This document shows positions 2,986 to 55,541 of a stretch of 64,000 nucleotides of DNA, in pieces; the first letter of the stretch is position 1, and each line of letters begins with the position of its first letter. Location of the stretch: NCBI GenBank assembly GCA_043806735.1, contig JAZDGR010000050.1:280-64279 (forward strand). Reading direction: 5' to 3'. The position numbers and the translations under genes were made by a program. This DNA comes from a bacterium. Lineage in GTDB: Bacteria > Bacteroidota > Bacteroidia > Bacteroidales > FEN-979. Under the pieces are notes generated by a model. It was not told where the DNA came from and did not search any database. It was given only the letters and a program-made list of their open reading frames with translations.

Positions 2986-4926
2986 TCACAAATCTCCCAA
3001 TTCTGCCTTCATCTCTTCTTTCACCTGCTGAATAAACTGTTCTACTTTCTGCGGCCCAAGATCACCTTCTCCATGCTTTCTCACAGCTACTGTGCCTTCA
3101 TTTTCCTCCCTCTCTCCTACCACAAGCATATACGGAATTTTCATCAGTTCCGCATCACGGATCTTTTTCCCGGCTTTCTCATTCCGCTCGTCAACGAGGG
3201 CGCGAAGTTCGAAATTATTCAGCAAATTTAAAACTTTTTTTGCATAATCGTGGTATTTTTCGCTGATTGGCAGCACGATAACCTGGTCTGGAGCAAGCCA
3301 TAACGGGAAATTTCCACCGGTGTGTTCGAGTAGTACTGCGACAAACCGTTCCATTGATCCGAAAGGTGCACGGTGGATCATCACCGGCCGATGCTTCTGG
3401 TTGTCGGCACCAATGTATTCTAGTTCGAATCGTTCGGGCAGATTGTAATCCACCTGGATCGTACCCAATTGCCATTTCCGGCCGAGGGCATCCTGTACCA
3501 TAAAATCCATCTTTGGGCCATAGAATGCAGCCTCTCCGGGTACAACCACAGCTTCCAGGCCGGTTTCCCCGGCAACCTCCAGGATCGCCTGCTCGGCTTT
3601 ATCCCAGTTCTCATCTGATCCGATGTACTTTTCTTTGTTGGTTTTATCCCTCAGCGATATCTGCACAGTGAAATCTTTAAAACTCAGCGCTTTGAAGATC
3701 AGCATGACGATCTTCATCACTCCTTTGAATTCCTCTTTTACCTGATCAGAGGTGCAGAATATATGCGCATCATCCTGGGTAAAACCCCTGACGCGCGTAA
3801 GTCCGTGAAGCTCGCCGCTCTGTTCGTAACGGTATACGGTTCCGAATTCTGCCATACGAATGGGCAGGTCCTTGTATGAATGTGGTTGGGAACTGTAGAT
3901 TTCGCAGTGATGCGGACAATTCATCGGCTTTAGGAAGAACTCTTCTCCCGGAATGGGCGTGGTGATCGGTCTGAATGAACTCTCCCCATATTTCTGATAA
4001 TGGCCTGAGATCTTGTACAGCTCTACATTTCCGATATGGGGACAAATCACCTGGACATATCCCATCTTTTTCTGTGTTCTCTTCAGAAAAGTTTCCAGCT
4101 GTTCGCGGAGTTGGGCGCCCCGGGGTAACCACAGCGGAAGTCCTTGTCCAACGCGTTGCGAAAAAGTAAAGAGCTCCAGTTCCTTTCCAAGTTTCCGGTG
4201 GTCCCGCTTTTTGGCCTCTTCCAGCAGTACAAGATACTCATCCAGCTCTTTCTGTTTCGGGAAGGTGATGCCGTAAATGCGGGTCAGCTGTTTGCGGGTT
4301 TCATCCCCTCTCCAGTAAGCACCGGCAATGGTCAGCAATTTTATGGCCTTAATTGGACCGGAGTCAGGAAGGTGAGGACCTCTGCAAAGGTCGGTGAAAT
4401 GGCCTGATTCATAAAAGGTAATCTCCACGTCCTGCAGGTCATTGATCAATTCGATCTTGTACGTATCCCCTTTCCGGATAAAATAATCAAGCGCCTCGCT
4501 CCTGGATTTCTCAATCCTGCGGAATGGTTGATTTTCTCGGGCCAATTCCAGTATCTTCTGTTCAATCTTCGGAAAATCGTCGGAAGAGATGGAGTAATTT
4601 CCAAAATCAATGTCGTAATAAAATCCGTTCTCGATATCCTGCCCGATGCCAAACTTCACCCCAGGATAAAGCAATTCAATCGCTTCGGCCATCAGGTGCG
4701 CCGAGGAATGCCACATCGTGGCTTTTCCTTCCGGGTCGCTCCAGGTAAATAGTTTTATTGCGGCATCTTTCCGGATTGGCCGGGTGAGATCCCATACTTC
4801 CCCATCCACTTTCACCGAAAGCACATTTCTGGCAAGCCCTTCACTGATGCTTTGAGCAATCTGAAGACCGGTAGTTCCATCCGGGTATTGTCTCACCGAA
4901 TTATCTGGCAAAGTGATATCTATCAT
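2986..4926 (-). CDS. thrS: Threonine--tRNA ligase
   Basis: TGS domain, [39 protein letters not shown]. Confidence 0.98.
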
Positions 4927-43016: not shown

Positions 43017-44953
43017 ATGCGAACGTTCTTGTTCACCTTGCTTTTTCTGGTTGGAGTACAAACAACTTTGGCTCAGAAAGAAGGCAAAGCCCTGATCGAC
43101 TCCCTGTATACGGCTTTGCCCGGAATGAAGGAGGATACCGGCATGGTCAGACTACTGGCAGCGATAAACTTCGAAATGCGCATTGTAAATCCCAGAGAGG
43201 GGTTGAAACCGGGTCTTACCGCCCTGCACTCCTCCGGGAAGCTCAATTATCTATACGGGGAAGGGCTATCTCATTATTCCCTCGGAATCAATTATGCTTA
43301 TATGTCAAGGTTTCCTGAATCCGTAGACCAACTCCTGAAAGCACAGGTGATCTTCGAGAAACTCAAGGATTACAATCTTATCTGTGCAACTTATCTGGGG
43401 CTTGCATTATCATACAGAGATCTTGACTCTACTATTTCCTTTAAGTATCTTCTTAAAGCCAAAGAGATAATGCCTCAAAGCACGGTTAGTGTATGGAAAG
43501 TCAGGAACACTGGTAATATTGGCAACATTTACCGATCACTAAATCATTTGGATTCTGCGGGAAAATACCTGTCTCTCCAATTAAAACTGAGTAAGGATTA
43601 TCATCTGAATTATGAAATGATGCTGGCAAAAAACAGATTTGGATGGCTATATTTGAAACGTAACAACCTGGACTCAGCATTTATATTTCTCAAAACCGGC
43701 TTGGACTATTTCAAGTCCATTGGGGCAAACTACCTGGTTGCAGAGAATAGTGCTATTTTAGGCCATATATTGGTAAGGATTTACCTTGCAGATGGTTCAC
43801 ATAAAAACCAGGTTCTCAGGGAAGCCAAAGTTTATGCTGAGGAAGCACTGCAAGCCGCACAGGAGATCGGAATGATCGAGGTATCCGATGCAAGTGTAGT
43901 GCTATCAGATATATATAAAATAGAAGGGAATAGTGCTAAGGCTCTTGATTATCTTCAGCAGTCATATAAATATAAAGATAGCATCTTAGGACTAAAAATT
44001 GTGAACAAAGCTACTTTTCTCAATTGGAAATATGAACAGGAATTAAAAGACAAACAGGTTGAAGTGCTGGAATTGCGCAACAGACAGCAGTTCACATTGA
44101 TCATTGCAACAGGAATAATTGCTGTGATCCTGGTCATCGTTGTGCTCTTTATCATCAGCAGCCGGAAAAAACTGAAGAAGGCATACAACCTGGTAAACCA
44201 GCAAAAGGATGAAATTACCCGGGTCCTCGGTGAACTCAAACTACAAACCTGAAACTTGAAACCTCGAACCTGAAACTTGAATCTGCCAACCAGGAGCTGG
44301 AAGCTTTTTCCTACTCTGTCTCGCACGACCTGCGCGCCCCGGTGCGGCGGATCGAAGGGCTCTGCACCATGCTCGGGGAGGATTACGAGAAACAACTGGA
44401 TGAGGCAGGCAGGGATCTGTTATCCCGCATCACCGGATCGACGGTCCTGATGAACACACTGATAGAGGATATGCTGAAACTCTCCAGGATCACGCGTCAG
44501 TCGGTCACCAAAGCGCCCTGCGACATCAGTGAAATGGCAGGAAAGATCTGCGAGGATGTAAGACTGACCTACCCGGAAAAAGTAGTGATCTGCAATATCG
44601 AAGAGGGAATGCGTGCGGAGGCCGATTCCAACCTGATGCAGATAGCCCTGCAGAACCTGATCGACAATGCTTTTAAATACAGCTACAAAGCAGAACATCC
44701 GGAAGTCACCATCGGAAGTGAAATGAAAGAGAACAAAAGGGTCATCTTCGTCCGGGACAATGGGGTGGGTTTTGACATGAGTCGGGCAGGAAAGCTCTTC
44801 ACCCCCTTCCAGCGGCTGCACAGCGATGAGGAGTTCAAAGGGAGCGGGATCGGGCTTGCAACGGTCAAACGGATTATCGTCAAACATGGAGGCAGCATTC
44901 ATGCTGAAAGCGAGCCCGGGAAGGGGACGACCTTCTTTTTTACGTTTGAATAA
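43017..44953 (+). pseudogene. TPR-sensor histidine kinase, frameshifted inside a heptamer array
   Basis: Signal, TPR and TM regions in the first frame (stop 44250-44252). ESANQELEAFSYSVSHDLRAP HisKA and NLIDNAFKY/DNGVGF/GIGLA HATPase follow in another frame. Confidence 0.85.
44233..44280. repeat. AAC(C/T)NNN heptamer array (one 6-nt and six 7-nt units)
   Basis: aactca aactaca aacctga aacttga aacctcg aacctga aacttga. Confidence 0.9.
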
Positions 44954-45258
44954 GTCGTCTGGTGCGATATTGATCGATGATCCGTCAGGATCATCCGTTA
45001 ATCCGCAGAGGGTATCAGTGAACCGGTAATGCCTTTCGATGTCATTTTCATCACGGCATTTAACCATGCTGTCATGACCAAACTGTCACGATAGTCATCA
45101 GGCTGGCATCAGAAATCGCCAGGATCACCAGGGAGTTAGTCTGCATCGACTAACCGGATGGGATAAAGGTAATCACAGAAAATTCTTGCTGCGAAGATGA
45201 ACTTCATTACTTTTGTACAGAAGGATTGTTCCTGTGCATGAAAGATTAAACCTTGCCG

Positions 45259-46938
45259 ATGCAGTTGTTTAACAAAGATTACCGGGCCTTAGGCTACTTA
45301 TGGAAATATATCAGGCCGTTCAAGGAACGATTTCTTTTCCTGAATATCCTGTCCCCCGTTTACTCTGCCCTGGGTGGGGCATCCTTTCTCTTTATCAAGA
45401 GATTACTGGACGATGGATTTCTGGTCAACAATTCCCAGGAAATCGGGAACACCATCCTGATCCTTTTTGGGATTTTCTTTGCCCAGACGTTGATTGATCT
45501 TCTGCAGACCTACCTGCACAACAAAACCACCAACACCATAATGATCGATATCAAAGACAGGTTGTACAATGCCGTTATATCCAATTACAGGGCCATCCGT
45601 ACCAGGCAACAGGCCGGCGAGATCCTTTCGAGGTTTTATATCGACACCAGCAATTTCATCACGCTAATAAATATCCTTTCCTTAGAGCTGATCAAACAGC
45701 TGTTTACCCTGGTGTCCATCATGGCAGTACTCTTCTACCTGAACTGGAAATTCGCCCTGATCCTGTTCCTGGCCTATCCTCTGTTTATCCTCCCATTGAT
45801 AAAACTCGGTCACTGGCTCCGGAATCTCAGTCAGCATTACCTGCACGCCTACGGCAAATCAAACAGTATACTCTACGAATCGTTGTATGGATACCTTATC
45901 ATCAAGACCTATAACCTGATTGCTCATTTCAAGGATAAATACAAGACGAACAATGAGAAGCTGGCCAACAATTTGCTCAGGTCCACCATGATCTCGAAAC
46001 TGGTAGGACCGATCAATGACCTGGCCTCTTTTGTGGGACTGGCCCTGATTCTTTATTTCAGCATTGTACAGGTACAATCAGGAGCCCTCACGGTTGGCAG
46101 TCTGGTGGCATTTCTTGTAGCATTGATGAAGTTCTATCAGCCTGCCAAAACCCTCTTTAATCTTTATAATTCCATCCAATCCGCGTTCCCCGGATACCTC
46201 AGGATGAAGAGCGTGCTGGAATCTCATGAAGATACAACAAGGCATGAAGAAATCCAGAAAGTATCTTTCAAGGAGTGCCTGGAACTCAAACATGTCACGT
46301 TCTCCTATGACAATCAGAAAAGGATCCTCGATGACGTAAGCCTGAGGGTCAATAAAGGGGCAAAAGTGGCTATTATCGGGCGAACGGGCGCCGGGAAGTC
46401 TACGCTGATCAGTCTGCTGCTTGGCCTGATTCAACCCGGGAAAGGAACTATTCTCATCGACGGCAGGAGCTATCAGGAGTTGAACCGGGAAAGCGTATTC
46501 AGCCTGTTTTCCTATATCTCGCAGGAACCTATTCTGTTCAATGATTCGATCAGGTATAACATTCAGCTGGGGAAACTGGAGAGTTCAGGGGATGAACTCA
46601 TTGAGGCCAGCAAAAAAGCACAGTTGCACTCCTTTGTAACGAATATTCAGGATGGATACGATACGATCGTGGGCGACAGGGGGGATATGTTATCGGGCGG
46701 GGAAAGACAACGGATAACCATTGCCAGGGCTTTGCTGAGAAATGCGCCAATCATCATTTTTGACGAAGCCACCTCCTCGCTGGATTATGAAACCGAATCG
46801 GATATTAAAAAGGAGGTTTTCAGGTTATCCGCCGACAAAACACTCATCATAATTACCCATCGGCTTACCACCCTCAAGGGAGTGGATAAAGTATACAATA
46901 TCCAGGATGGTAAACTGGTGGAATCAAACTGGGAATAG
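45259..46938 (+). CDS. ABC exporter, fused TMD-NBD (RiPP cluster)
   Basis: TM domain; GRTGAGKST, LSGGERQR, IIFDEATS. No C39 peptidase domain visible. TACTTTTG -7 box at 45208-45215. Confidence 0.93.
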   Translation: MQLFNKDYRALGYLWKYIRPFKERFLFLNILSPVYSALGGASFLFIKRLLDDGFLVNNSQEIGNTILILFGIFFAQTLIDLLQTYLHNKTTNTIMIDIKDRLYNAVISNYRAIRTRQQAGEILSRFYIDTSNFITLINILSLELIKQLFTLVSIMAVLFYLNWKFALILFLAYPLFILPLIKLGHWLRNLSQHYLHAYGKSNSILYESLYGYLIIKTYNLIAHFKDKYKTNNEKLANNLLRSTMISKLVGPINDLASFVGLALILYFSIVQVQSGALTVGSLVAFLVALMKFYQPAKTLFNLYNSIQSAFPGYLRMKSVLESHEDTTRHEEIQKVSFKECLELKHVTFSYDNQKRILDDVSLRVNKGAKVAIIGRTGAGKSTLISLLLGLIQPGKGTILIDGRSYQELNRESVFSLFSYISQEPILFNDSIRYNIQLGKLESSGDELIEASKKAQLHSFVTNIQDGYDTIVGDRGDMLSGGERQRITIARALLRNAPIIIFDEATSSLDYETESDIKKEVFRLSADKTLIIITHRLTTLKGVDKVYNIQDGKLVESNWE

Positions 46939-46946
46939 GTAAATCC

Positions 46947-47486
46947 ATGCCGATAGATTATACCACGGAGATGATCCTGGCGCTTGACATCCTGAATGCC
47001 AACGGATATTTATGGACACGCGTCAAGGCAAATAACTCGGCTCCCCTGATCAACGAAGGGGATATGATCTGCCTGAAGAAAAGCGGGTATGCATTGAAAA
47101 AGGGGGATCTTGTAGCGCTGGATTACCAAAAGCTATTCATCGTTCAGCGAATTGTCAAACTCAGCGGGGAAACCATTTACACCAAGGCAGATCATTCGGA
47201 AAAAGGCCCGTTCATGCAACCGATCGGGATCGTTGCAGGAAAAGTGGTGCTTATAAAAAAAACACAGGATCTCCTGAATATTGATAACCGGCTCTGCGAC
47301 CGGATTCACCTCCTCATCACACGATATTCAGTAGGACGTAGCGAAACCTACATAAATACAGGATTTTTCTATCGTAAATTTTTTCATAAACTGAGAAGAT
47401 CCATCCTGAAACGTCTATTGAAACTGGAAATCATTATAGGTAGAAAATATGCGAAGAACGTTGATCCGGGATTACAAATCCCTTGA
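46947..47486 (+). CDS. S24/S26 peptidase-like protein with degenerate catalytic motifs
   Basis: RVKANNSAPLINEGD...IVQRIV...YTKAD aligns with the GxSMxP..GD / HR / TKGD pattern but lacks the SM and HR residues. Confidence 0.65.
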   Translation: MPIDYTTEMILALDILNANGYLWTRVKANNSAPLINEGDMICLKKSGYALKKGDLVALDYQKLFIVQRIVKLSGETIYTKADHSEKGPFMQPIGIVAGKVVLIKKTQDLLNIDNRLCDRIHLLITRYSVGRSETYINTGFFYRKFFHKLRRSILKRLLKLEIIIGRKYAKNVDPGLQIP

Positions 47487-48687
47487 ATTTCAGCGTCTGA
47501 ATAAGGTACTCGGGTTGCTTACCCATTACCGGGAAGGGGAACTCAGAGAGCATATACCGTTTATCCGCAGACTGGAGATCAGCCAGTATTACCTGGCATT
47601 GCTGGAGAAACAGCTTGCTACCGAGCCTGAAGTAGTTGCGCAACTGGTCAAGCACAAAAAGGAGACCCTGTTCAATAATCTCTATTACCTTAATCATGCC
47701 GCCCGGCTACTTTCCCGGTTGAAAGAAAGAAAAATCGATTGCATCGTGTTGAAAGGCCTTTCTTTTATCAATCATCTTTATGAAGACATAGGTTTACGGC
47801 CATTTGGCGACCTGGATCTTCTCATTCACCGGGAAGATGTAAGAGGTTTTCTTGAAGTGATGGAACAGGAAGGGTTCAACCTTAAATGTGAAGTGAAAGA
47901 TTCTGACAATACGGATGATTTCGACATGTACAATGCGGAAACAAAGGTGAAGATTGACATTTTAACAACATTAAACGGAGGGTTCTATTTCAGTCGTTAT
48001 TACAACCTGGATACCTCGCAGATCTGGGAGCGGAAAAAACTAGTGAAAATTCAGGACACGGAAACCTACCGGTTAAGTGAAGAAGACGAGCTATTGTATT
48101 CCATCGTTCACCTTGCTTTTCATCTTAATTTTCATGTCGAAATCAAATGGCTTTTTGATCTCCGGTATTTCCTGGAAAAATACAAGAAAACGCTGGATAC
48201 GGGGTACATCATCGAACAGGTCAGAAAAGCGGGACTTACACACGTCATCTTTGCCGTCACAGAGATCATGTATTGGATATTTCAAAAGGATTATTCTGCC
48301 GTTTTTGGGATTGTTAAGCCCCGTTTTTATCTTTTTGATAAAACCTGGCTCAGGTTTTATGCCTTCCCTCCCCGGCTGTTCGGGATCTGCCTGGAATTTC
48401 CCGGAGTCATAAACAGAATGGCGATCACCTTTATGAAATATTCCCTGATTTCCATACCGAAAAAGAAATGGAAATTTATTACCGACCGGGTTTTTCCTGA
48501 TTTTGACCGGATTACCTTTGCCTATACGCAGCGGTTCAGGATCCCCCTGAAACTCTATTTCCCAATGATACGCATGCTATTCCTGCTGTTATCGCCTGTT
48601 TTCCTGACCTGTCTCTTCGTGATCTTCCTGGGTTCGACAGTCATTGTGAAGATCATTCTGTTAAAGCAGACTTTTTTGTATGAATGA
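47449..48687 (+). CDS. Nucleotidyltransferase family protein (NTP_transf_5-like)
   Basis: IVLKG...Y...LRPFGDLDLLI motif, HLAFH...WLFDL. Confidence 0.85.
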   Translation: MRRTLIRDYKSLEFQRLNKVLGLLTHYREGELREHIPFIRRLEISQYYLALLEKQLATEPEVVAQLVKHKKETLFNNLYYLNHAARLLSRLKERKIDCIVLKGLSFINHLYEDIGLRPFGDLDLLIHREDVRGFLEVMEQEGFNLKCEVKDSDNTDDFDMYNAETKVKIDILTTLNGGFYFSRYYNLDTSQIWERKKLVKIQDTETYRLSEEDELLYSIVHLAFHLNFHVEIKWLFDLRYFLEKYKKTLDTGYIIEQVRKAGLTHVIFAVTEIMYWIFQKDYSAVFGIVKPRFYLFDKTWLRFYAFPPRLFGICLEFPGVINRMAITFMKYSLISIPKKKWKFITDRVFPDFDRITFAYTQRFRIPLKLYFPMIRMLFLLLSPVFLTCLFVIFLGSTVIVKIILLKQTFLYE

Positions 48688-49189
48688 CCTTTACGAAGTC
48701 AAGCTGGAACTGGTCGCGAACCAATTACTTTCAGGTCAAACCGTGAAAGTCAGGGCCAGCGGCCACAGCATGACCCCTTTTATCCATGATGGGGATCTAC
48801 TTACCCTGCACAGGGTAAGGACGGCTAACTTACAGCCGGGTGAAATTGTCGCATTCATCCGGAACGGGCTCCTTTTTATTCACCGGATCATTGAAGTCAG
48901 CATGACGGATGAAATGGTTTTGACAAAAGGAGACAACCTGTTGATCTCTGATAAATTATTAAAACCGGAAGAGGTCCTGGGCAGCGTGATCGACATCAAT
49001 GATATATCTGTGACAACCAGGAGGATCATGCATCACCTCTTTTTTCAATTATACCGGTTTTGTTTGCTGGCCGGGAATGTTAAAAACGCTTATGAGAACC
49101 ATAGGATTGTTCAACTATCCATGGATTCTCAAAGGTTCAGGATGTGTTCGGTCATCCTCCGGGTTTACAGGTTTTTCGTTTTTCTGTAA
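48680..49189 (+). CDS. S24/S26-family peptidase (signal peptidase I-like, Ser/His dyad)
   Basis: ASGHSMTPFIHDGD, FIHRII, LTKGDN. Confidence 0.85.
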   Translation: MNDLYEVKLELVANQLLSGQTVKVRASGHSMTPFIHDGDLLTLHRVRTANLQPGEIVAFIRNGLLFIHRIIEVSMTDEMVLTKGDNLLISDKLLKPEEVLGSVIDINDISVTTRRIMHHLFFQLYRFCLLAGNVKNAYENHRIVQLSMDSQRFRMCSVILRVYRFFVFL

Positions 49190-49213: not shown

Positions 49214-50101
49214 ATGAACACTATTGACCAACCTCTGTTAGAGAACTATTTTCACGGAGTAAGTGATCTTGGACACGATCGCTTTAATCTCAGGATCGGC
49301 GGAATCGGCCTTTCGGTGAATGCGGTAAAAGATCCCCTGTTTGAAGCAGCGGTATCCAAGTACGAAGAGTTCCTCACACCGGAAAAATTCCCGGAAGCCG
49401 TTCATTTTTATTATGTACAAACGCTTCCTCAGCCGGAAGCCATCACGAAGACGTTCGACACTTACAAAGAACTCTTTACAACATCTTTGAACCGCCATTT
49501 GTACATCTATCGCTGGGACTTCATAGGAATCATTGAACTTGCCGCCCGGACCGGGAAATTCATCTTATTCAACCCCGCCTTTATGACCTATGAATCCATC
49601 ATACGGATTTTTTATTCCCTGCTGACCGTAGAGAACCACGGATTTTTGCTTCATGCCTCCTCCCTGATTCATAAAGAGAAAGGTTATTCTTTTTTTGGCC
49701 TATCCGGCAGCGGAAAATCCACGGTGGTGAAGCTTTCGGAGTCGGATGAATGCCTGACCGACGAACTCACGATGATCAAAAAGGATCAAGGCAGATATAT
49801 TACTGCAGGGACTCCTTTTCATGGAGAGATTCCTCTTTACATAAACAAGACGGCAGCGCTGGCCAATATGTTTTTGTTAAAGAAATCCGAAACAACCCAC
49901 TTCCGTAAAATGAGCCGGTCAGAGATTTATCCGATCCTGCTGAGAAACGTCTTGTTTTTCAGCGATGACTGGGAACTAAGGCAAAAGATATTCACCACCA
50001 TTATCGACCTGGCTGACCGGGTAGCTATTTACGAAATGAATTTTGAAAAAAACGAAAAATTCTGGAGGATCATTGATCATGGATTTAAAGACGAAGATTA
50101 A
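49214..50101 (+). CDS. HPr kinase-related P-loop kinase
   Basis: LLHASSL...FFGLSGSGKST...LTDE...GTPFHG. Confidence 0.8.
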   Translation: MNTIDQPLLENYFHGVSDLGHDRFNLRIGGIGLSVNAVKDPLFEAAVSKYEEFLTPEKFPEAVHFYYVQTLPQPEAITKTFDTYKELFTTSLNRHLYIYRWDFIGIIELAARTGKFILFNPAFMTYESIIRIFYSLLTVENHGFLLHASSLIHKEKGYSFFGLSGSGKSTVVKLSESDECLTDELTMIKKDQGRYITAGTPFHGEIPLYINKTAALANMFLLKKSETTHFRKMSRSEIYPILLRNVLFFSDDWELRQKIFTTIIDLADRVAIYEMNFEKNEKFWRIIDHGFKDED

Positions 50102-50357
50102 GCGCAACGCGAACAGTTCGTTTCAAATTGCCGATGGCAAAGCGGTCGTCATGCTGGCGGTGAATTCAAACATTTTCACCCTGAATGAAATCGGGACCTT
50201 ACTATGGGAACTGCTGGACACACCAAAAACCATTGAAGAGCTGGTGTCGGGCGCTCAGAAAAAATTCCCGGAAGATAATCAGGGAACCATCCGGCAGGAA
50301 ATCCTCGAATTTATCAAAGAATGTTTAACGGAACAATTACTGGTTCAAGGGGATTGA
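50079..50357 (+). CDS. PqqD-family RiPP recognition element (stand-alone)
   Basis: 92 aa; FTLNEIGTLLWELLD...TIEELV...ILEFIKEC...LL winged-helix pattern; GGAGG upstream of ATG 50079. Confidence 0.88.
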   Translation: MDLKTKIKRNANSSFQIADGKAVVMLAVNSNIFTLNEIGTLLWELLDTPKTIEELVSGAQKKFPEDNQGTIRQEILEFIKECLTEQLLVQGD

Positions 50358-50358
50358 C

Positions 50359-51420
50359 GTGCCAAATTTCGAGAACACCGAATCCTACCGGTTCCTGAAA
50401 AAACATGCCGTTAAACACCTTATTCCCCTGACGGCCTTGCTTGAGCTCACCTATCAATGCAACCTGGATTGCAGCTGTTGCTATAATGTCAGAAACGAAC
50501 GACCGCTGCTGACCTTGCAGGAATATGACCTGTTGTTTTCCGACCTGAGGAAGGAAGGAACCTTTATTTTTACATTAAGTGGCGGCGAACCCTTTATGCG
50601 GAAGGATTTTTTCGACATCCTGGATCTGGTCAGGAAACATGGTTTTGGTTTCCGGATTTTCACCAACGGCACCTTACTGAATGAAGAAAAGATGATCCGG
50701 TTAAAGAATTATCCATTACTCGGAATGGAAATGAGCCTTTGGGGATCCAATCCTGAAATCAATGACAAACTGATGGGCAAACCCGGCACCTTTCACCGGA
50801 TCATCGAAACAGCGAAGGGATTAAAAAAACACGGGATTCCGTTCACCATCAAGACGACCGTTTGTGCCGGGAATTATTCCGATTTCGGCAACATTAAACT
50901 GCTGGTTGAAAGTCTGGGAGCCGAGTTCCGCTATTCTCCCTGGCTGACGATGAGGCTGGACGGCGATCGTTCCAATATGAATTTCCGGCTGAATGAACCC
51001 CAGGCAAGAGCGTTCTATACCATTCATGATAAGGCCTATGCCGACCAGGATCCTGTGGCTCAGCGAAAAAAGAATCTGAGCAAATCCACTACTAAAAACT
51101 TCAAGGGATATATGTGCCTTGCCGGGATATCTACTTTTGCACTCAATCCGTTCGGCGATGTATTTCCTTGTATCGATATCCCTGTCAGGGCAGGAAATGT
51201 CAGGGAAACCAACTTCCGGGAGATATGGAAGGAAGCCGCTGTCATGAAAAAATTAAGGAGACTCCGGGTGACCGATGCCAGGGATTGTATGGAATGTAGT
51301 CTCAAGCCCTCTTGTGCAAGATGTCCGGGTATTGCGTTGGTGGAAACGGGCAAACTGACAAACCCGTTCTCTTACGCCTGCCTTTTAGCAAAAATCGAAC
51401 AGGACATTCAAAATTGTTAA
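50359..51420 (+). CDS. Radical SAM/SPASM peptide-modifying enzyme
   Basis: ELTYQCNLDCSCCY (CxxxCxxC), SGGEP, FTNG; SPASM CLAG...GDVFPC...GN...CMEC...SCARCPG...AC. Confidence 0.93.
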   Translation: MPNFENTESYRFLKKHAVKHLIPLTALLELTYQCNLDCSCCYNVRNERPLLTLQEYDLLFSDLRKEGTFIFTLSGGEPFMRKDFFDILDLVRKHGFGFRIFTNGTLLNEEKMIRLKNYPLLGMEMSLWGSNPEINDKLMGKPGTFHRIIETAKGLKKHGIPFTIKTTVCAGNYSDFGNIKLLVESLGAEFRYSPWLTMRLDGDRSNMNFRLNEPQARAFYTIHDKAYADQDPVAQRKKNLSKSTTKNFKGYMCLAGISTFALNPFGDVFPCIDIPVRAGNVRETNFREIWKEAAVMKKLRRLRVTDARDCMECSLKPSCARCPGIALVETGKLTNPFSYACLLAKIEQDIQNC

Positions 51421-51508: not shown

Positions 51509-51670
51509 ATGGAGAACAAAACCGAAACTCTTTTGAAATGGCAAAAGCCCATGATTGAAGTGAAGGAAATTTTTGAAAAAACTGCCTTAAATTGTGATGG
51601 CAGCCCCTTTAACAATCAACAAACTAACCCGAAGCAAAGCGCCGGTTCTTGTGGCTATTGGTACAGTTAA
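51509..51670 (+). CDS. Putative RiPP precursor peptide, 53 aa (absent from the ORF track)
   Basis: MENKTETLLKWQKPMIEVKEIFEKTALNCDGSPFNNQQTNPKQSAGSCGYWYS; WxxPxI RRE-type leader motif; directly after the rSAM gene; AAGGA upstream of the ATG. Confidence 0.85.
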   Translation: MENKTETLLKWQKPMIEVKEIFEKTALNCDGSPFNNQQTNPKQSAGSCGYWYS

Positions 51671-51715: not shown

Positions 51716-51809
51716 ATTAAGAACATTTTCTTCAGGTATTGCTTTGAATAACCCATGGATTGTATCTTATCTTACAAGATGCAATTTTTGGGTTTTTTAT
51801 GTAACTAGG

Positions 51810-52745
51810 GTGACGACAAAATACGTATACATCTCTTCTCTTCCGCGCAGCGGATCTACGTTGCTTTCCATGCTACTGGGTTCGCATGAAAAGATATTCT
51901 CCCCGGGAGAATTTGTATTGTTCGGTCAGGCGCTTCAGTCTAATTCAACCTGTACCTGCGGGAAACCCATCCGGGAATGCGACTTCTGGGGGTTTATCAT
52001 TGAAAAGCTGACTCAGCAAGGTTTTACAGGCAAACAGGAAAACGGGGGTAACTTTGTTACGCTGGTTTATCCTTTTGAATTCATGAAATCACGGCTTCAG
52101 AAAAGCCTGATAAAACTTTATTACTATGCCTTGCTTCATCATAGCCGGTTCTTAATCGATATTGCGACAGCAAATAGAAAAGGGTATCCCTATCATATGA
52201 AAAAGGCAGTAACTAATTCAACTATCCTGCTCGAGAACCTGTACCAATATTTTCCTGACCCGGATACCATCATACTGGATGCCAGTAAAACGGTCACTAC
52301 ATTGAATCACCTGTACATCAAACAACCCTTTCCGGTGAAAGTGATCGCTTTGATCAGGGACGGGCGGGGCTCCGTAAATTCCTGGCTCAAGTCTGACCAG
52401 ACATCGTTCATTGATACTGTCAAATCCTGGCAGTTCCATATGGAGACCCAGCAAAAGTCGCTTAAGGGCATCAAGGCCGGGGATAAAATCTTTGTCAGGT
52501 ACGAAGACCTTTGCAGGAATCCTGAAGGTGAATTAAAACGGCTGTGTGATTTTTTAGAGATACCCTACCAGGGGAAAATGTTAGCAATGGAGGGTCCGTT
52601 TCACATGCTGGGGGGCAATCCCGGGACGTATGCAAGCACCAAAACGATCCGTCTTGATAACGGGTGGGCGTGTAGTTTTGATAAGGAACAGCTGACTTTG
52701 TTCGACGAACTGGCCGGATCCCTGAACAAGGAGCTGGGGTATTGA
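51810..52745 (+). CDS. PAPS-dependent sulfotransferase
   Basis: SLPRSGSTLL 5'-PSB loop, ILDASK, LIRDGRGSVNS 3'-PB, VRYEDLC..P; likely GTG start at 51810. Confidence 0.88.
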   Translation: MTTKYVYISSLPRSGSTLLSMLLGSHEKIFSPGEFVLFGQALQSNSTCTCGKPIRECDFWGFIIEKLTQQGFTGKQENGGNFVTLVYPFEFMKSRLQKSLIKLYYYALLHHSRFLIDIATANRKGYPYHMKKAVTNSTILLENLYQYFPDPDTIILDASKTVTTLNHLYIKQPFPVKVIALIRDGRGSVNSWLKSDQTSFIDTVKSWQFHMETQQKSLKGIKAGDKIFVRYEDLCRNPEGELKRLCDFLEIPYQGKMLAMEGPFHMLGGNPGTYASTKTIRLDNGWACSFDKEQLTLFDELAGSLNKELGY

Positions 52746-52867: not shown

Positions 52868-52909
52868 GTCAGGTAACTACCGGTATTTACCTGACTTTTT
52901 TTATCTTTG
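52868..52909 (+). promoter_or_regulatory. Palindromic operator and -7 box of the AbiE operon
   Basis: GTCAGGTAA-c-TACCGGTA-t-TTACCTGAC (28 bp, one mismatched pair), then TATCTTTG at 52902-52909. Confidence 0.7.
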
Positions 52910-52927
52910 CAGCAAATATCAATTTCA

Positions 52928-53653
52928 ATGAAAACAACAGATATTATTGGTGATAAAATAAACAGGCTTCCGGTTGGCTATGTTTTCACCTATGAGTATT
53001 TTAATCTGCCGGTGGACAAGATTGATGCCCTTACCAAGGCCCTTAGCCGTTTGGTACAGGAGGGTAGGATTCGTAAACTCTCTCCAGGCAGGTTCTATAA
53101 ACCCCGACTTACTGAATTTGGAGAACTGCAACCTGAAGTTTACCAGGTGGTGAAGGACCTGCTGGAACAAAATGGTAAAATTTCCGGATACCTTACCGGA
53201 TATTCTGTTTACAACCAACTCGGCCTTACGACTCAGGTTTCCGGTATCATTCAGATTGGCACCAACGAAATGAAAAAAAGCATCACACGGGGCATGTATA
53301 AAATCCGCTTTATGAAGCAGCCAAATAAAATAACCAGAGAAAACATACCCCTGCTGCGCATTCTCGATGCAATCCGTAACATCAAAGAAATCCCTGATAC
53401 TACTATAGAGCAATCCTGTAAAACCCTTTTAACACTCATCAAAAAAATCAATAAATCAGACAGGGAAACATTCCTGCGTCTTGCAAAAAAATACAACCCT
53501 GCTGCACGTGCCATGACCGGTGCAATTTTTGAAATTTGTTTTAGCCCAAAGGCAGCCGAGCCACTGTATAAATCATTGAATCCATCGTCATCATACAAAT
53601 TTGGAATATCAGCAAATATATTACCTAACAAACAACAATGGAATATCCTATGA
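52928..53653 (+). CDS. AbiEi-type (DUF6088-like) antitoxin
   Basis: wHTH KALSRLVQEGRIRKLSPGRFYKP; YNQLGLTTQV; ATGA overlap with the AbiEii gene. Confidence 0.82.
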   Translation: MKTTDIIGDKINRLPVGYVFTYEYFNLPVDKIDALTKALSRLVQEGRIRKLSPGRFYKPRLTEFGELQPEVYQVVKDLLEQNGKISGYLTGYSVYNQLGLTTQVSGIIQIGTNEMKKSITRGMYKIRFMKQPNKITRENIPLLRILDAIRNIKEIPDTTIEQSCKTLLTLIKKINKSDRETFLRLAKKYNPAARAMTGAIFEICFSPKAAEPLYKSLNPSSSYKFGISANILPNKQQWNIL

Positions 53654-54612
53654 ACCTGCACAACGAAAAAAGTTCATTCACAGCCGCTATACAGGCTGCA
53701 TCCGACAGATTAGGAATACTTCCGGTATTTATTGAAAAAGACTACTGGATTACATTGGTATTAAAAAGACTTTCAGAAAGCAAATTCAATGATAGTGTCG
53801 TTTTCAAAGGTGGTACATCTCTCTCTAAGGGACACAAACTCATCAATCGCTTTTCTGATGACATTGATATTGCTGTAATCAATGTTCCTGATATGTCGTG
53901 CAATAAAGTGAAAAATCTTATTCGTGATGTGGAAAAATATATTTCTGCAGACCTGGCAGAAATTACAGATTCTCCGTATGCGAGCAAGGGCTCACGTTTC
54001 AGAAAATCCATTTTCACTTATCCTAAAACAGGAGATTCTCGCTTTTATCAAGAGGTTTCAGACAAATTGAGTATTGAAATAAATTCCTTTGCCAATCCTT
54101 ATCCTTACGAAAAGCGCGAAATCAACAGCCTTATCAGTACGTCTCTCGCATTAAACAATCAAACTGACCTGATAAAGAAATATGAATTAATGCCATTCGC
54201 AATAAATGTCCTTCATACGAATCAGACTCTGCTCGAAAAACTGGTTTCTTTATTCAGATCTTCTTTTGAGAAAGACCCGGTCGCTGGCATTTCTGGTAAA
54301 ATCCGACATTTCTATGATTTGTTTTATCTTTTATCTGATAAGGATTGTAAAGCACTCATAGATTCTGAAGATTTCTCTGCTCAATTCAATGATGTCTGGT
54401 CCCGTGATCAGGTTACTTTTGATGAACCGGAAGGATGGCAGGATAAATCAGTTTCTGAATCACCTTTGTTTCTCATATTTCCTGAATTATGGGATGCACT
54501 AAGAAGTACTTACAACAAGGAATTATTTGCTTTGGCCTTCGCTGAAATCCCTGAAGAAAGAAAGGTTGCAGATGCTTTTATGTACATTATTAACAAGATT
54601 TCCAAGGCTTGA
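53650..54612 (+). CDS. AbiEii/AbiGii-family nucleotidyltransferase toxin
   Basis: IEKDYW, VFKGGTSLSK, RFSDDIDI, TLLEK, RHFYDL. Confidence 0.9.
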   Translation: MNLHNEKSSFTAAIQAASDRLGILPVFIEKDYWITLVLKRLSESKFNDSVVFKGGTSLSKGHKLINRFSDDIDIAVINVPDMSCNKVKNLIRDVEKYISADLAEITDSPYASKGSRFRKSIFTYPKTGDSRFYQEVSDKLSIEINSFANPYPYEKREINSLISTSLALNNQTDLIKKYELMPFAINVLHTNQTLLEKLVSLFRSSFEKDPVAGISGKIRHFYDLFYLLSDKDCKALIDSEDFSAQFNDVWSRDQVTFDEPEGWQDKSVSESPLFLIFPELWDALRSTYNKELFALAFAEIPEERKVADAFMYIINKISKA

Positions 54613-54708
54613 TACACATAAGAGAATAGATTCGTACATAATCCCTCGTGCTTCTTGATTGGTAATTAAGGTTACATTTGCACACAAAAAAACAAATCAA
54701 ACTACAAT

Positions 54709-55005
54709 ATGTATATCTCCATCATGAGCCACTTCATTGATGATAACGGAAACATTGCAAAAGAAATGCATAAAGAAGGCAGAGAACTCGCAAGTTTCTT
54801 TGCACTTCTTGTCGATACGGCCACGAAGAACTATCCTTCACCTGTAAAATCCTCCGGGATAAGATGCAGGAAGAAAAAGTGTACAGGCACCATTGTTATT
54901 GGGATGGATACTGAAAATGAAGTAATTGAGTGGCATTGCACAACATGCAACGAAGGTGGAAAAATAAGTGGCTGGCAAGGTAGCAAGTGGGATAATCGGA
55001 AATAG
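54709..55005 (+). CDS. Small Zn-ribbon-like hypothetical protein
   Basis: CRKKKC...WHCTTC...ISGWQGSKWD. Confidence 0.65.
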   Translation: MYISIMSHFIDDNGNIAKEMHKEGRELASFFALLVDTATKNYPSPVKSSGIRCRKKKCTGTIVIGMDTENEVIEWHCTTCNEGGKISGWQGSKWDNRK

Positions 55006-55014
55006 TTTCTAGTC

Positions 55015-55215
55015 CTATCGCAATTTTTCATTAACATACTCCACCACCCCCTCCATATCCAGCTCTTTATTTGAAGAGAAGTAGCGGATGAAGTGTAAGC
55101 CGAATTCAATCCGTTGGCGGTTCACGGTAATTCTTTCATAGATTGGCATGGTGCCATCTTTTAGCACTTTTGTTCTTTTGATGAAGAACAAGAGGGTACA
55201 TGTTGCTCGTGTCAT
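55015..55215 (-). pseudogene. Truncated tyrosine integrase (N-terminal arm-DNA-binding domain only)
   Basis: TLLFFIKRTK..KDGTMPIYERITVNRQRIEF matches the N-terminus of Bacteroidota integrases; no catalytic domain follows; lies downstream of a tRNA 3' end. Confidence 0.75.
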
Positions 55216-55452
55216 AGCTCTGATTTTAGGTTTACAAAACTAGATTTTCAGAGCAAAAGAGTGAAATGCAAAGTACTGCAAATCAGTGAGAAATCACCTA
55301 AATAGGTGGACTTGGCTGTTTTCGATTTTAGTCCACCGATTAGTCCACCTCATTAGTGCATTTTTCTGCGTTTTTTAGCGTTTTCGGCAAAAAAGAAAAC
55401 CACTGAAAGCGCAGAATTTCAGTTGTTTACGTTAACTTGCTTTATTATTCAG

Positions 55453-55541
55453 CGGAGAGACAGGGATTCGAACCCTGGGACCCAGTTACCCGGGTCAACG
55501 GTTTTCGAGACCGCCCCATTCGACCGCTCTGGCATCTCTCC
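55453..55541 (-). tRNA. tRNA-Ser(CGA)
   Basis: Reverse complement GGAGAGATGCCAGAGCGG...GCGGTCT-CGA-AAACCGT, long variable arm, GGTTCGAATCC, TCTCTCC-G. Confidence 0.96.

Follow-up and report, generated by a model that had tools for sequence, protein, structure and literature searches.

A 53-codon gene in a Bacteroidales contig as putative precursor gene of a cross-linked, phosphorylated and sulfated peptide

A 53-codon open reading frame in the stretch of Bacteroidales DNA analysed here (64,000 nt, hereafter the window) is a real, conserved, coding gene, and selection and linkage together indicate that it is almost certainly the precursor gene of its own cassette of nine plus-strand genes, several of which overlap (Table 1). 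On sequence grounds, we see about an even chance that its product is an exported peptide that resembles the linear polyphosphorylated peptides (LPPs) of Bacillota, which are encoded by lppA-K-B-S-D-N (main text of Popov et al., 2026, PMC13381572), and that is cut near Ala26, cross-linked through Cys, phosphorylated at Ser53 and sulfated at Tyr50.

Table 1. Genes of the precursor cassette, with positions in the window
Gene product	Position	Strand	Features
MsbA-like ABC exporter without peptidase domain (LppD-like)	45253..46938	+	PF00664 and PF00005
S24/S26-fold protein	46947..47486	+	Gln replaces catalytic His in 4/4 aligned orthologues; overlaps nucleotidyltransferase start
PF14907 NTP_transf_5 nucleotidyltransferase (LppN/PsmN-like)	47449..48687	+	E 1e-41; RPFGDLDLL motif
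Archaeal-type signal-peptidase-like S24/S26 protein (LppS-like)	48680..49189	+	TIGR02228 55.3 bits, cut-off 51.85
HPr-kinase/PEPCK-fold kinase-like protein	49214..50101	+	His147, GxSGxGK(S/T)T P-loop and Asp183-Glu184 conserved
Stand-alone PqqD/RRE	50079..50357	+	Solved relatives are lasso and LPP RREs 9x90, 5v1u, 9x8z
Radical SAM/SPASM enzyme	50359..51420	+	C34/C38/C41; SPASM Cys 253, 271, 310, 313, 319, 322, 341
Precursor peptide	51509..51670	+	53 aa; leader W11-x-K-P14...F22-E-K-T-A26; core about L27-S53 with C29, C48, Y50, S53
PF13469 PAPS-dependent sulfotransferase	51744..52745	+	PRSGST, Glu56, RDGRG, CxCG-x5-C insert

The frame quoted in an earlier note on this DNA was found exactly as given, running from ATG to TAA with a 53-aa translation that includes WQKPMI, FEKTALNC, Cys29, Cys48 and a YWYS end. 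Compared with the copy in a same-genus genome (G081), 18.5 synonymous differences in 30.5 sites were counted vs. 15.5 non-synonymous ones in 128.5 sites (Fisher p 1.9e-7), giving dN 0.132, dS 1.24 and a dN/dS of about 0.11, and against the copy in G437 pN was 0.27 with saturated synonymous sites. Among 33,913 small ORFs of the host genome the window ORF ranked first (E 0.039; runner-up E 1.5) with a profile of 36 Acidobacteriota-type peptides (described below), which held zero window-type sequences among its seeds and whose seed-picking pattern was composed after the window peptide had been seen. An AAGGA lies 5 nt upstream of the ATG and is not preserved in G081 or G437; promoter and terminator scans gave 9 promoter-like sites vs. 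14.1 expected and 14 terminator-like sites vs. 8.8 expected, and no conclusion was drawn from them. A tblastn search of the host genome, by gene content probably that of a Bacteroidota member, gave no second copy of the peptide or of the cassette genes. The same note had called the peptide unannotated, which applies in that neither Pfam nor NCBIfam holds a family for it or for the 20 members of its peptide alignment, and fails in that the sequence was already in a predicted-protein collection. The ESM Atlas leads for the peptide were all under 0.9 and pointed to unnamed clusters, 2/3 of them mostly Acidobacteriota.

Homologous peptides numbered 21, of which 19 were distinct from the W/Y onward, and the two duplicates were left out. 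P14, I16, E23, A26, L27, C29, D30 and the final Ser are present in all 19, and in 18 the stretch running from Cys29 through Ser53 is 25 residues long. The typical end of this stretch is C-G-Y-x-x-S. The sixth-last residue (Cys48) is Cys in 18/19, Lys42 is kept in 18/19, and Phe34 and Tyr50 in 17/19 each, so that both core Cys pointed out before are borne out by the alignment; the exceptions are Gly at position 48 in P0003, Phe at position 50 in P0285 and a different tail in P0290. Position 51 is Trp in three peptides, and N, A, C, D, H and S also occur at positions 51-52. By source name, the distant members include one Candidatus Pacearchaeota and one Candidatus Coatesbacteria.

The window-type cassette is rare. 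Among 90 genomes of the host family, the peptide profile and the sulfotransferase search detected their targets in the same five (host, G081, G083, G086 and G088); a kinase orthologue was found in four of these and not in G083, a genome that is 69% complete and whose contig begins at the peptide. The radical-SAM enzyme search of 400 order-level genomes added one cassette, in G437; a match in G405 was discarded, its radical-SAM locus being unrelated. The peptide profile had zero matches in 400 class-level genomes, no match in 5/6 genomes of the G437 family and none in viral contigs. The search for such peptides beside homologous enzymes, proposed in the earlier note, was thus positive in G081, G083, G086, G088 and G437, and the ABC exporter was also found in these five cassettes. 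In all six genomes the sulfotransferase gene lies directly 3′ of the peptide gene, and these genomes are kin, not independent events. The order in G437 (kinase-RRE-rSAM-peptide-ST-ABC-S26-NT-S26) is permuted, which places the sulfotransferase inside the cassette.

Beyond these relatives, the host radical-SAM protein matched six distant loci in the genome collection, including two of Omnitrophota, L001 (1680-5937) and L002 (904-11185), in which three radical-SAM genes lie around the gene of a peptide that has a YETPK leader and ends in SS, and an HPr-kinase-like gene. Additionally, L002 encodes an S24-led 631-aa protein and a PqqD. These cassettes are related to that of the window, but their peptide differs. 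A different cassette was observed in the host family itself (G021, L016 4919-10089; G012, L017 4402-9496), with a short peptide bearing a YSKPKVERIRLD leader, a PqqD, an HPr-kinase-like protein, a 751-aa S24-led protein and a nucleotidyltransferase-like protein, and with no radical SAM seen; it is LPP-like, in a non-Bacillota host.

A much larger family surrounds the window subfamily. With a mixed peptide profile, 773 precursor clusters at 50% identity were matched (E <= 0.001), and the FExxALxC motif named in the earlier note proved to belong to a large, real family. Radical-SAM relatives in the next ring show 30-35% identity, and those few whose organism is named come from Acidobacteriota. 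Of 554 metagenome loci the best 80 were examined, and 51 of these contain a peptide with the pattern YxKP-x6-(V/I)F-E-T-x-AL-x-C-GK...C...S-stop, termed Acidobacteriota-type here, beside S26, kinase and RRE genes, as do 35 of the 37 loci whose upstream sequence reaches 2.6 kb or more. Its leader spacing is identical to that of the window peptide, the common register being (Y/W)xxP-x6-(V/I)FE-xx-AL-x-C...C...S-stop. The wider-family alignment consisted of the best 150 of the 773 clusters, one of which is P0002, and 147 of the other 149 were parsed. All 147 end in Ser and have exactly two core Cys; none has Tyr or Trp in the last five residues, and 141 have neither from the first Cys onward. These results support the earlier assignment as a RiPP precursor whose RRE-type (W/Y)xxP leader ends near FEKTAL; its leader and Cys are supported, its aromatic C-C chemistry poorly so (see below), and the C-terminal Ser, the sulfotransferase with Tyr50 and the LPP-type peptidase had been overlooked. 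Two loci carry two precursor copies each with identical cores, L020 (353-517 and ~3100-3245) and L077 (1182-1352 and 4414-4629). Large secreted-looking proteins often adjoin the Acidobacteriota-type cassettes (L022 8332-10164, L025 3753-6179, L047 2975-5152, L082 2765-4900), and the window-type cassettes in L013-L015 and L101 showed none as neighbours.

The discrete RRE very probably binds W11-x-x-P14-x-I16, as LPP and lasso leaders are bound. Its nearest solved structures are 9x90 and 5v1u; it retains the Asn equivalent to LppB N33, and LppB D70 corresponds to Glu in this RRE and to Asp in its four close relatives, although the leader aromatic of the window peptide is Trp. Trp is tolerated by LppB (PMC13381572).

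Leader removal would, with only slightly less assurance, fall to the intact S24/S26 protein, whose Ser, His and Asp are present in 4/4 orthologues; the analogy is LppS, which requires S29/H68/D93 and the RRE (PMC13381572). A cut after the invariant Ala26 is favoured, at roughly even confidence: when the aromatic is set at -16 in LppA numbering, the cut falls there, and Cys29 takes the place of the LPP phospho-Ser3. In this register Thr is at -3 in 137/147 wider-family peptides and Ala at -1 in 147/147, although the latter was built into the parsing pattern and one of the two unparsed matches has Thr. The wider-family -3 Thr and -1 Ala agree with the -3/-1 rule of type I signal peptidases, to which the window peptide, with Lys at -3, is a poor fit. 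If the FE motif is taken as the reference instead, the cut falls after Lys24, a tentative alternative, and a cut before Cys29 appears unlikely. Unmodified cores starting at Thr25, Leu27 and Cys29 would have monoisotopic masses of 3137.32, 2965.24 and 2738.11, respectively. The second S24/S26 protein is likely an inactive peptidase copy, judging from its missing His.

The kinase-like protein matched TIGR04355, TIGR04249 and TIGR04352 weakly, all under cut-off, and its probable role is to (poly)phosphorylate the invariant C-terminal Ser53. Lasso HPr-like kinases phosphorylate a C-terminal Ser (PMC8498205), and in LPP the kinase modifies Ser3 of the core instead of the C-terminus (PMC13381572). 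The nucleotidyltransferase might attach a sugar to the Ser53 phosphate, a step that we place somewhat below even chance: PsmN attaches a hexose to the C-terminal phospho-Ser of pseudomycoidin (PMC8498205), and LppN was without observed activity (PMC13381572). The ABC exporter is likely to secrete the product.

For the sulfotransferase, which probably starts at the GTG at 51810, the case for and the case against sulfation of Tyr50 within C-G-Y appear evenly balanced. A dedicated sulfotransferase adjoins a precursor with a conserved Tyr in 6/6 genomes, as in Tyr-sulfated RiPPs, and CysD and an APS kinase domain are present in the host for PAPS supply. Its nearest solved relatives are TPST1/2 and CurM-ST, which are simply the solved members of the sulfotransferase fold (TM ~0.5). 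The Tyr tail and the sulfotransferase co-occur: the subfamily has Tyr50 in 17/19, the wider family has no Tyr or Trp in the last five residues of its 147 peptides, and the 80 Acidobacteriota-type loci (599 kb; best 80 of 554; 14 with 4 kb on both sides) gave no sulfotransferase with a profile that detects two distant sulfotransferases in the control locus L109. The six cassette genomes are kin, so the link between sulfotransferase and Tyr may be a single event. SslST offers a parallel, as it sulfates Tyr5, between Gly4 and Phe6, within a thioether ring (PMC11143521).

Alternatively, the sulfotransferase may act on a sugar added to phospho-Ser53 (or on Ser/Thr) and yield a sulfated phosphoglycopeptide in which Tyr50 is structural. 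This is improbable in our estimate, even though pseudomycoidin receives a hexose from PsmN at its C-terminal phospho-Ser, and putative sulfotransferase genes, along with nucleotidyltransferases, flank Firmicutes lasso clusters (PMC8498205). The next sulfotransferase relative found (in G783) has a further sulfotransferase and an ABC transporter as neighbours and, within 3.5 kb, no peptide cassette, which makes a sugar acceptor possible, and P0285 has Phe at position 50; but no glycosyltransferase or sugar-nucleotide gene was present among the scanned cassette proteins, and the joint appearance of Tyr tail and sulfotransferase speaks against this alternative.

As for the radical SAM/SPASM enzyme, we lean slightly towards it making Cys-to-carbon thioethers with Cys29 and Cys48. 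An RRE-linked SPASM-Cys radical SAM enzyme and a conserved core Cys are both present, as in sacti- and ranthipeptides, and among solved proteins SkfB is the best match in sequence and CteB in fold, at ~20% identity; for the predicted model (pLDDT 91.8), CteB was the top fold match (TM 0.71). CteB has an open, thiol-binding auxiliary site. The window clade lacks an eighth SPASM Cys (position 260) that 16 of 24 aligned relatives have, P0019 and P0021 (54% identical) among them, and therefore an open auxiliary site is not a family trait. The top NCBIfam scores, all far under cut-off, were those of AhbD, NirJ2, WgkB and MftC, none of which is, to our knowledge, a thioether enzyme. The residues in proximity positions 1-6 are Y,S,F,S,I,D in the window enzyme vs. 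Y,T,F,S,Q,L in SkfB, Y,T,I,S,K,L in StsB and F,F,T,S,H,Q in CteB. From the Acidobacteriota type to the window type, positions 3, 5 and 6 change from K to F, from V to I/V and from Q to D, respectively, and the subfamily may thus have an altered chemistry.

That no thioether forms, and that the cassette instead yields a Cys29-Cys48 disulfide, an oxidised Cys (formylglycine- or thioaldehyde-type) or an epimerised or decarboxylated residue, is an unlikely alternative. A disulfide would require just the two Cys that all 147 wider-family cores have; eight SPASM Cys, as in 16/24 relatives, are also carried by anSME; AhbD and MftC are among the top NCBIfam scores; and proximity residues 5-6 equal those of no compared thioether enzyme. 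However, SkfB and CteB, which among solved proteins are nearest in sequence and fold, are thioether enzymes, the window clade shows the seven-Cys SPASM pattern, the enzyme accompanies the peptide in 51/80 loci (35/37 with enough upstream DNA; best 80 of 554), and Cys is the sole invariant reactive core residue apart from the last Ser. Least probable by far is an aromatic C-C or C-O cross-link of the cyclophane type at Phe34, Tyr50, Trp51 or Tyr52: Phe34 and Tyr50 are each present in 17/19, the proximity residues have changed from the Acidobacteriota type and WgkB is the third NCBIfam match, but the aromatic C-C cross-links once proposed from the YWY end are poorly supported because Trp51 is not conserved (3/19, positions 51-52 being often non-aromatic), and 141/147 wider-family cores lack Tyr and Trp.

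In comparison with known systems, the cassette is closest in composition to the LPP pathway as given in the main text of PMC13381572. An SpI-like Ser/His/Asp peptidase, a separately encoded RRE, a kinase resembling HprK (by weak profiles and motifs), an NTP transferase, an MsbA-like exporter and a (Y/W)xxP leader with a downstream FE motif are common to both, and Cys29 lies 18 residues past Trp11, as LPP Ser3 does past Tyr-16. However, three genes of the cassette go beyond that set, namely those for the radical-SAM/SPASM enzyme, the sulfotransferase and the S26 copy that lacks the His, and that main text contains none of the words radical SAM, SPASM, sulfotransferase, Bacteroid or Acidobacter. 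The LPP consensus YxxPxVLxHQxIxFETxxS does not fit either: the window peptide has Trp for Tyr, its FE is 11 and not 13 residues past the aromatic, and no xxS follows FEx; its core is short and of fixed length, contains two Cys and ends in Ser. The LPP pathway is described as being without a cyclising enzyme, hence its linear product, whereas the window-type cassette has a fixed radical-SAM/SPASM gene. LPPs are moreover described there as restricted to Bacillota. The cassette would work like an LPP pathway with added cross-linking and sulfation. Neither the published leader consensus nor its gene content makes it an LPP cassette, and it is not a lasso cassette, nor SynChlorMet by model cut-offs.

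With the lasso systems of paeninodin (PadeK) and pseudomycoidin (PsmK/PsmN), as presented in PMC8498205, the WxxP leader and the PqqD-like RRE are in common, and modified lasso systems also have a kinase with an invariant C-terminal Ser, a nucleotidyltransferase and sometimes a sulfotransferase gene. No lasso cyclase or B2 protease was found among the proteins scanned between 45253 and 55002; in their place the window has the radical-SAM enzyme and the S26 peptidase. Similar to the sacti- and ranthipeptide systems of SkfB, StsB and CteB, there are an RRE-dependent SPASM enzyme and a Cys-containing core (PMC10288494), but the window enzyme is ~20% identical to theirs, scores far below the NCBIfam cut-offs and differs at proximity residues 5-6. 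RaxX/RaxST and the SslST/SscST lanthipeptides likewise combine a TPST-like sulfotransferase with an adjacent precursor that has a Gly-Tyr-aromatic motif near Cys; they are likened by motif and fold, and differ in ring chemistry and leader and in being described without a kinase (PMC11143521). HPr-kinase-like, PqqD-like and SPASM genes also stand together in SynChlorMet (TIGR04248-TIGR04251), but the ScmC, D, E and F models scored far below cut-off (20.9/125, 23.4/100, 117/400 and 55/400, respectively), and the window has one SPASM gene. We know of no kinase, nucleotidyltransferase, S26 peptidase or sulfotransferase from sacti- or ranthipeptide clusters.

A bolder and rather doubtful proposal is that the cassette represents a RiPP class in which one short peptide bears a sulfotyrosine along with a C-terminal (poly)phosphate or phosphoglycan and a thioether macrocycle made by the radical-SAM enzyme, that this lineage acquired the Tyr tail and the sulfotransferase in a single module added to a widespread scaffold of LPP origin, and that the dead signal-peptidase copy is an adaptor presenting the peptide to the nucleotidyltransferase; such an adaptor could explain the inactivity of LppN alone. 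In the literature searched, which mostly excluded subscription papers, no description of the cassette and no product of the wider family, large as it is (773 clusters), was found; the peptide family may be among the uncharacterised groups in the Precord supplement, which covers ~15,000 RRE-linked radical-SAM enzymes. The window offers a compact case, in which a single 53-residue substrate has predicted sites at Cys29, Cys48, Tyr50 and Ser53 with one enzyme for each. It would take LPP-type leader processing beyond Bacillota, bring a further radical-SAM reaction and enlarge the small set of sulfated RiPPs, and the His-less S26 copy would be a handle on the requirements of PF14907 nucleotidyltransferases.

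To the right of the cassette, window positions 52907-55541 (GC ~37-40%) hold a DUF6088 and AbiEii-type toxin-antitoxin pair and a 98-aa ORF of no known kind, with an Arm-DNA-bind_5 integrase fragment on the minus strand (55015-55215) next to a tRNA-Ser(CGA) at 55452, and look like a decayed islet. An assignment of the cassette to this tRNA-Ser islet was dropped because the cassettes of the relatives have other neighbours; neither the DUF6088/AbiEii pair nor the integrase-arm fragment is beside them. No tRNA was seen beside the cassette in the other loci scanned apart from G081, where the cassette end adjoins a tRNA-Ser(GGA) (L015 276-364), unlike the tRNA-Ser of the window. To the left, at 43017-44953, there are a TPR sensor ORF (411 aa) and, after it in a different frame, a 203-aa ORF with a histidine kinase domain, and the two may be one split or frameshifted sensor kinase.
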